Source: Escherichia phage moskry. Taken from it: 64,000 nt of DNA. The DNA lies in sequence record MN850651.1. One strand, 5' to 3'. The notes beneath the pieces are model-generated. The model saw only the letters and a list, made by a program, of their open reading frames with translations. It made no database searches and was not told where the DNA came from. Positions 52,220-52,373 of the stretch are shown one piece after another (the first letter of the stretch is position 1; each line of letters begins with the position of its first letter). The position numbers were made by a program, and so were the translations under genes.

Positions 52220-52293
52220 TCGAGACAGAAGGATTCTAACCTTCAACCTACGGATTAGAAGTCCGTTGCTCTATACAATTGAGCTATGCCTCG
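52220..52293 (-). tRNA. tRNA-Arg (anticodon UCU)
   Basis: Hand-folded cloverleaf: acceptor CGAGGCA/TGTCTCG, D-stem GCTC/GAGC, anticodon stem ACGGA/TCCGT with loop CTTCTAA, T-stem GAAGG/CCTTC. Confidence 0.75.
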
Positions 52294-52299
52294 AATATA

Positions 52300-52373
52300 T
52301 GACCCAGACCAGATTCGAACTGGTAACCTTTCCCTTATGAGGGGACTGCTGCTAACCATTGAGCTACAGGGCC
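52300..52373 (-). tRNA. tRNA-like gene, anticodon CAU (Met or lysidine-Ile type), irregular D-arm
   Basis: T-arm ACCAG-TTCGAAT-CTGGT, anticodon loop CTCATAA, acceptor GGCCCTG/CTGGGTC with one U-U mismatch; D-stem does not pair canonically. Confidence 0.5.

Follow-up and report, generated by a model that had tools for sequence, protein, structure and literature searches.

Escherichia phage moskry (MN850651.1) carries two transfer RNA (tRNA) genes that lie one directly behind the other on the minus strand of the 64-kb stretch analysed here, which we call the window. The window belongs to a Mosigvirus, an RB69-like T-even phage, and the 8 kb around the site are 96-97% identical to mar005P1, JS09 and HX01. 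ARAGORN and the Rfam tRNA covariance model (RF00005), the latter applied at its gathering score of 29 bits, both reported exactly two tRNAs in the window, and both genes exceed that score. The genes and the sequence that joins them are:

52373-52300, minus strand: tRNA-Ile2-type gene with anticodon CAU and no encoded CCA (ARAGORN; RF00005, 54.0 bits, E = 8.1e-9).
52294-52299, minus strand: 6-nt spacer, UAUAUU, joining the two tRNA genes, as read from the sequence.
52293-52217, minus strand: tRNA-Arg(UCU) gene, with CCA encoded at 52219-52217 (ARAGORN; RF00005, 71.1 bits, E = 1.5e-13).

In a dimeric precursor, the spacer would serve the Ile tRNA as 3' trailer and the Arg tRNA as 5' leader. A first-pass annotation had reported only two tRNA genes where T4 has eight, had called them a minimal set, and had described the CAU tRNA as irregular, with an unconventionally paired D arm and a U-U mismatch in the acceptor stem. 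It left the gene as either a functional Ile(lysidine)/Met tRNA or a decaying one and proposed a covariance-model score and a comparison with T4 tRNA-Ile as checks. The count holds for the window. The label of a minimal set is correct but has been in print for RB69 since 2006: whole-genome counts give two tRNAs in RB69 and eight in T4 (Nolan et al. 2006, Table 1, PMC1524935), and a 2025 description of five Mosigviruses lists two tRNAs ('methionine and arginine') in four of the five and ten in the fifth, so a two-tRNA set is the documented state of the genus.

The CAU tRNA departs from a regular cloverleaf in its stems. On the minus strand the D arm runs GCUC-AAUGGUUA-G-C-AGC, one C longer than the usual GCUC...GAGC, and the covariance-model alignment marks three non-standard pairs, U6.U67, C13.C22 and G27.A43. 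The minus-strand position, the G27.A43 mismatch, a G2.U71 wobble, the lack of an encoded CCA and the 6-nt spacer were additional to the first-pass description. Both E. coli ileX and more distant phage homologues have the D stem GCUC...GAGC without the extra C, and pairwise alignment with ileX opens a single-base gap exactly at this position, so the extra C is best read as a one-base bulge after nucleotide 22. The energy of the cloverleaf is slightly better with the bulge (-18.1 kcal/mol) than with a mismatch (-17.0 kcal/mol). The loops are regular: a 7-nt anticodon loop, CUCAUAA, with U33 and a purine at position 37; a T loop of the UUCRANY type, UUCGAAU; and a D loop, AAUGGUUA, with G18G19.

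To assign the CAU tRNA to a class we used published determinants. Overall identity to E. coli tRNAs was tried and dropped as a criterion, at 67.6% to ileX and 68.0% to metT (57.1% to the initiator; metV, 57%), and since it does not discriminate, the isoleucine call rests on specific determinants and on the T4 orthologue described below. The host tRNA sequences used for comparison were verified. E. coli TilS requires C4-G69 and C5-G68, and the U4-A69 and A5-U68 pairs of tRNA-Met are negative determinants (PMC2500205, PMC1635315); the phage tRNA has both C4-G69 and C5-G68. Similarly, TmcA, which acetylates C34 of tRNA-Met, requires C27-G43, and G27.U43 of tRNA-Ile2 is an antideterminant (PMC2500205, PMC1635315). 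The phage tRNA lacks the features of an elongator tRNA-Met: U4-A69 and A5-U68 are absent, and C27-G43 is replaced by G27.A43. Nor does it resemble an initiator, which is marked by C1xA72, A11-U24 and G29G30G31 paired with C39C40C41 (PMC1635315): it has G1-C72 and C11-G24, and positions 29-31 are CCC paired with GGG, the opposite orientation. By contrast, every element listed for bacterial IleRS (A73, C4-G69, U12-A23, C29-G41, A35, U36, A37 and A38; PMC9976931, Table 1) is present, U12-A23 on the condition that the extra C is read as a bulge. We also drew 45 distinct CAU tRNAs with the anticodon arm CCCCUCAUAAGGG from annotated phages and an IMG/VR scan; among them C4-G69 is found in 39, C5-G68 in 33 and A73 in 43. 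No match at E < 0.01 turned up when 28 Gb of E. coli genomes were searched by BLAST with the 74-nt CAU tRNA. Together with the annotation of the T4 orthologue, the determinants make a strong case for reading the CAU tRNA as a tRNA-Ile2.

This assignment agrees with what has been concluded for the relatives of T4. All T4-like genomes that carry tRNAs include one with the anticodon CAU, classed as Met by tRNAscan-SE, and these CAU tRNAs, that of RB69 included, carry tRNA-Ile signatures and are presumed to be lysidine-modified (Nolan et al. 2006, PMC1524935). In T4 the orthologous gene carries the annotation isoleucyl-tRNA, and records of BASEL phages likewise label it Ile. The T4 tRNA-Ile itself is reported to accept isoleucine and to respond to AUA (Scherberg and Weiss 1972; McClain, Guthrie and Barrell 1972).

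The sequence match to T4 is close to complete. The CAU tRNA is identical at 73 of its 74 positions to the gene annotated as tRNA-Ile in T4 (NC_000866 71960-72033), the sole difference being G57 in the T loop of the window gene where T4 has A57. Accordingly, T4 tRNA-Ile has the same extra C in the D arm, the same U6.U67, G2.U71 and G27.A43, the same anticodon, and no encoded CCA. When the T4 locus was compared with the window (blastn), the tRNA was 97.5-98.6% identical and the coding flanks 69-83%; at a background divergence of 17-30%, the chance of at most one difference in 74 nt is 2e-5 to 1e-10. The irregular D arm defines a clade made up of T4, RB69, the window, two Dhakaviruses and matching IMG/VR contigs, with six distinct sequences. 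Their variants are U16C in the D loop, G57A in the T loop, U67C facing the already mismatched U6, and, in Dhakavirus, a compensatory change of A52-U62 to G52-C62 in the T stem. None of these breaks a Watson-Crick pair, which is the signature of a working RNA and not of a decaying one. Copies at least 95% identical to the CAU tRNA occur in 127 records of the phage collection. The hallmarks of a pseudogene, namely divergence like that of the flanks and substitutions that break stems, are thus missing: one position in 74 differs from T4, as against 17-31% in the flanks.

These results bear on the two options that the first-pass annotation had left. Both of its structural observations were confirmed, as the extra C in GCUC/G-C-AGC and as U6.U67. 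The CAU tRNA passes the covariance-score check with 54 bits against a threshold of 29, and the T4 comparison returns 73 of 74 positions with the same oddities. They support a functional, if non-canonical, Ile(lysidine) tRNA, and we rejected the option of a decaying gene on the basis of T4 conservation, variants that fall in loops or at the already mismatched position 67 or are compensatory, and the covariance score. The irregular features are real, but they are not peculiar to the moskry genome; they are simply those of the T4 tRNA-Ile sequence.

Where the irregularities arose can be read from more distant homologues. In Winklervirus Kc304, Jiaodavirus ATCCa, Gelderlandvirus Melville and Kuttervirus CBA120, relatives with the anticodon arm CCCCUCAUAAGGG form the regular D stem GCUC/GAGC and the pair U6-A67, and the CAU tRNA of Pseudotevenvirus RB43 has a regular D stem but U6.G67. 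Among the 45 CAU tRNAs, the extra C in the D stem is limited to the T4/Mosigvirus/Dhakavirus clade; an unrelated contig has a U bulge at that place. Because the distant homologues are regular and the bulge is restricted to one clade, the D-stem bulge and U6.U67 are derived and lineage-fixed: they are fixed features of T4/Mosigvirus/Dhakavirus tRNA-Ile and not damage. G27.A43, on the other hand, is typical of the whole family, as position 27:43 is not a Watson-Crick pair in 36 of the 45 (G.U in 14, G.A in 13, C.U in 5, U.U in 2, A.G in 1 and A.A in 1) and is C-G or G-C in none.

A one-base bulge after nucleotide 22 of a GCUC/GAGC D stem recurs independently elsewhere. It is a C in the tRNA-Pro of Kc304 (L005:1487-1564) and a U in a CAU tRNA and an Asn tRNA of IMG/VR contigs (L038:3926-4001 and L025:4087-4161). 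We restricted the count of such bulges to four unambiguous GCUC/G-N-AGC cases, a crude regular-expression count having given many false positives.

The tRNA-Arg(UCU) is not of the T4 type. Alignment with the tRNA-Arg of T4 shows a different sequence type, and a comparison of 22 distinct phage UCU tRNAs places it with the type found in Winklervirus and Jiaodavirus. With the tRNA-Arg of Kc304, ATCCa and TNG87 it shares the acceptor stem (CGAGGCA or CGGGGCA), the D stem, the anticodon arm and the T stem; the member that we scored, the Jiaodavirus-type TNG87, is 89.6% identical to it. These relatives have the near-universal G19-C56 as well as G15-C48, whereas the window gene has U19-A56 and A15-U48, so that compared with them both the elbow pair (19-56) and the Levitt pair (15-48) are altered on both sides. 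Covariation at the elbow is perfect among the 22 sequences: U19 is accompanied by A56 in five of five and G19 by C56 in 17 of 17. The sequences with U19-A56, from Mosigvirus, STP4-a and fPS-90, belong to a single clade and so probably reflect one evolutionary event, and the paired nature of the change would fit a preserved L-shape. Set against the loop positions of RF00005, the tRNA departs at U19 and A56; its anticodon loop, CUUCUAA, is ordinary. The determinants of E. coli ArgRS are A20, C35, U or G at 36 and A or G at 73 (PMC9976931). All are present in the phage tRNA, with A20 supplied by the D loop AAUUGUAUA, C35 and U36 by the anticodon UCU, and A73.

The GenBank record of RB69 has a longer tRNA-Arg (L001:3158-3236), of 79 nt, with two extra nucleotides (GG) inserted on the 5' side of the anticodon stem. 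The insertion is missing from the window and from other Mosigviruses and could be a laboratory-strain mutation or a sequencing error.

The two decoders are kept across T-even phages although their alleles differ: both a CAU and a UCU tRNA are present in T4, Dhakavirus, fPS-90 and UP19. Dhakavirus EcoM005 pairs a T4-type Ile with a T4-type Arg. In Tequatrovirus fPS-90 a Mosigvirus-type Arg accompanies a CAU tRNA of another, regular kind (L076:419-490), and Dhakavirus UP19 has this alternative CAU tRNA (L074:1044-1117), an Asn tRNA and a Winklervirus-type Arg. Retention of both decoders across differing alleles supports the idea that the pair supplements the two scarcest host decoders.

Several further observations concern these alleles. 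The CAU tRNA of fPS-90 and UP19 is a second allele, which takes the tRNA-Ile slot in some Tequatrovirus and Dhakavirus phages; its acceptor stem is regular and its anticodon stem resembles that of ileX. Across the T-even genera, the Ile and Arg alleles occur in shuffled combinations, in fPS-90 next to the segB homing endonuclease gene. In the Gelderlandvirus Salmonella phages Melville (L007:1222-1297) and STP4-a (L072:657-732) we found a tRNA base-for-base identical to E. coli ileX, which suggests recent capture of a host gene. Melville additionally has a phage-type CAU tRNA (L007:2501-2576), and none of that type lies within the 2.5 kb examined in STP4-a.

The two tRNA genes sit in a larger arrangement on the minus strand:

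52463-52436, minus strand: site like a T4 middle promoter, with a MotA box ATTTGCTTTA (52463-52454), a 12-nt spacer and a -10 element TATTAT (52441-52436), conserved with T4.
52453-52968, minus strand: 171-aa open reading frame (ORF), homologue of RB69ORF151c (PHROG 2290, function unknown).
51854-52198, minus strand: 114-aa ORF, homologue of RB69ORF150c, between tRNA-Arg and the rnaD-like RNA (ORF list and RB69 annotation; PHROG 3355, function unknown).
51857-51738, minus strand: homologue of rnaD, the T4 stable 'species 2' RNA, identical at 106 of 119 T4 positions; fold z = -2.7.
51731-51593, minus strand: homologue of rnaC, the T4 stable 'species 1' RNA, with a tRNA-like T arm CCGGGUUCGAAUCCCGG, 138 of 139 positions identical to T4; fold z = -4.7.
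51551-51523, minus strand: hairpin AGCCCCUUCC-GAAA-GGUUGGGGCU followed by UUUUUU, read from the sequence by eye.

With homologues of rnaD and rnaC downstream, the stable-RNA cluster comprises four genes and not two. Both homologues fold better than their shuffles, and neither was reported by the gene finders or by Rfam. A Pfam search of the two flanking ORFs (114 and 171 amino acids) returned no match. The hairpin at 51551-51523 is likely the intrinsic terminator of the stable-RNA transcription unit; a consensus pattern scan for terminators found none and did not list it. At the other end, the MotA-like site lies about 60 nt upstream of the 5' end of tRNA-Ile, in a conserved block that in T4 immediately precedes tRNA-Gln, the gene with which the T4 cluster begins. 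The arrangement ATTTGCTTTA-12 nt-TATTAT matches the consensus of T4 MotA-dependent middle promoters. We counted 12 occurrences of the motif TGCTTYA-N11-13-TANNNT in the window, where 1.8 are expected; none of 100 shuffles reached this number, and the minus strand holds nine of the sites. The block at 52463-52436 is a putative promoter. A sigma-70 promoter scan gave 11 sites, compared with 9.6 in shuffles, and in view of this lack of excess we did not rely on it.

The codons that the pair would read are used more often by the phage than by its host. We counted codons in a greedy non-overlapping set of ORFs of the window and in a single 50-kb sample of E. coli K-12. Per 1000 codons, ATA occurs 9.6 times in the window and 3.1 times in the E. 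coli sample, a 3.0-fold enrichment and the highest of any codon; for AGA the values are 5.7 and 2.9, or 1.9-fold. T-even phages supplement the scarcest host decoders, those for AUA and AGA, and as E. coli uses both codons rarely and the phage genes are enriched in them, the two tRNAs of the window would do the same.

We identify the region as the stable-RNA cluster of a T-even phage of the RB69-like genus Mosigvirus; it would be transcribed as a unit that ends at the hairpin-plus-U terminator. By analogy with T4, host RNase P would cut the 5' ends. The Ile tRNA, having no encoded CCA, would need its 6-nt trailer trimmed and CCA added by the host nucleotidyltransferase. Host TilS would then recognise C4-G69 and C5-G68 and convert C34 to lysidine, and host IleRS would charge the lysidine-bearing tRNA, which is predicted to read the isoleucine codon AUA. 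The Arg tRNA, with A20, C35, U36 and A73 in place, would be charged by host ArgRS and read AGA. We regard a T4-type stable-RNA cluster in which a lysidine-type tRNA-Ile2 and a tRNA-Arg supplement AUA and AGA decoding as the best explanation of the locus, with a probability of about 0.87.

Several observations weigh against this explanation. The cloverleaf of the CAU tRNA is not its minimum-energy fold (-18.1 versus -20.8 kcal/mol; the bulge and mismatch readings both lie within about 3-4 kcal/mol of the minimum), and the sequence is no more stable than its own shuffles (z = -0.43). Overall identity cannot separate tRNA-Ile2 (67.6%) from elongator tRNA-Met (68.0%), and most GenBank records as well as both detectors label the gene tRNA-Met. 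With respect to codon supply, the E. coli reference is small, at one 50-kb sample, and in T4 relatives the correlation between codon bias and tRNA content is poor (Nolan et al. 2006, PMC1524935).

The alternative that survives best is that the pair is kept mainly as a counter-defence, replacing host tRNA-Ile2 and tRNA-Arg(UCU) that are depleted or cleaved during infection, with the D-stem bulge, U6.U67 and the U19-A56 pair of the Arg tRNA making them poor nuclease substrates. This idea is compatible with codon supplementation. There is general precedent in the ability of phage tRNAs to neutralise retron, PARIS and anticodon-nuclease defences (PMC10264068, PMC11555353, PMC11464382), the oddities are clade-fixed and conserved where drift would have scattered them, and the weak relation between codon bias and tRNA content noted by Nolan et al. 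(2006) favours it as well. However, both anticodon loops (CUCAUAA and CUUCUAA) are ordinary, and since the same two decoders are kept in fully regular form by other T-even phages, the irregularities are dispensable. A literature search for defence systems that target tRNA-Ile2 or tRNA-Arg(UCU) in T-even infection found nothing specific, and we know of no such system. Counter-defence is in our judgement unlikely to be the main reason for which the pair is kept.

A reading of the CAU tRNA as an elongator tRNA-Met for AUG is more doubtful. It has in its favour the anticodon, the ARAGORN call shared by most GenBank records, an identity to metT as high as that to ileX, and the finding that tRNA-Ile2 with an unmodified C34 behaves as tRNA-Met (PMC1635315). 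Yet the pairs U4-A69 and A5-U68, which mark tRNA-Met for MetRS and are negative for TilS, are replaced by their TilS-positive counterparts, the C27-G43 needed to form N4-acetylcytidine (ac4C) is absent, and the T4 annotation, Nolan et al. (2006) and the BASEL records all say Ile. Moreover, AUG is not scarce, so the phage would gain little from an extra tRNA-Met. Together these points make the methionine reading very improbable. Least credible of all is a decaying pseudogene left behind by the loss of a larger T4-type cluster: four irregular or non-Watson-Crick stem positions (U6.U67, the extra D-stem C, G27.A43 and G2.U71), the missing CCA, a fold no more stable than shuffled sequence and the absence of six T4 tRNAs could be cited for it, but T4 tRNA-Ile has identical irregularities and is 98.6% identical across genera whose coding identity is 69-83%, the T-stem change in Dhakavirus is compensatory and no variant found in the clade breaks a pair, near-identical copies are found in the 127 phage-collection records noted above, the score is far above threshold, and the promoter block upstream is conserved, which leaves this reading with next to no weight.

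In the reading that we prefer, with tRNA-Ile2 and tRNA-Arg supplying decoders for AUA and AGA, the main feature of the locus is already known: the CAU tRNA is T4 tRNA-Ile but for one base, and the two-tRNA set of RB69 was published in 2006. Its value for annotation is that the gene should be labelled tRNA-Ile(CAU, lysidine) and not tRNA-Met, that it is not a pseudogene, and that what a covariance model flags as irregular can be a conserved feature of a lineage. Two comparative points are mildly new, namely the retention of Ile and Arg decoders across T-even genera by means of several interchangeable alleles and the compensated U19-A56 elbow pair in the tRNA-Arg of Mosigvirus. We give little credence to the idea that the clade-fixed irregularities (the D-stem bulge and U6.U67 of the Ile tRNA, U19-A56 of the Arg tRNA) are adaptive and not merely tolerated. 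If they were, they could mark the phage tRNAs to escape a host tRNA-targeting nuclease or quality control, or alternatively could tune the competition between TilS, MetRS and TmcA; in either case the host translation machinery would still be able to use them. The residual novelty would be a function of their own for the conserved irregularities and the U19-A56 pair, which is unlikely.

RB69 (NC_004928) is among the closest known systems. Its pair, RB69t002 'tRNA-Met' (CAU) and RB69t001 tRNA-Arg (UCU), lies between RB69ORF151c and RB69ORF150c; genus, gene order and flanking ORFs are as in the window, and the tRNA region is 97.7% identical over 301 nt, with C16 in the D loop of the RB69 CAU tRNA where the window has U16. 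E. coli tRNA-Ile2 (ileX/ileY) has in common with the window gene the anticodon CAU, C4-G69, C5-G68, A73, C29-G41, A37 and A38, together with G27 in a weak 27:43 pair and a D loop of similar type (AAUGGUUA in the window, AGUGGUUA in ileX). Unlike the window gene, it encodes CCA and has a regular D stem of 4 bp, C6-G67, G2-C71 and G27.U43. In T4, a promoter is followed by the tRNAs Gln-Leu-Gly-Pro-Ser-Thr-Ile, segB, a T4-type Arg, rnaD and rnaC, whereas the window has a promoter-like block followed by Ile, an Arg of the other type, an ORF, rnaD and rnaC. Thus, tRNA-Ile is the seventh gene of an eight-tRNA cluster in T4, where it is followed by TATTTT and then by the homing endonuclease gene segB, but is the first gene after the putative promoter in the window, where it is followed by TATATT and abuts tRNA-Arg. 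Likewise, rnaD starts directly after tRNA-Arg in T4, and in the window the 114-aa ORF intervenes.

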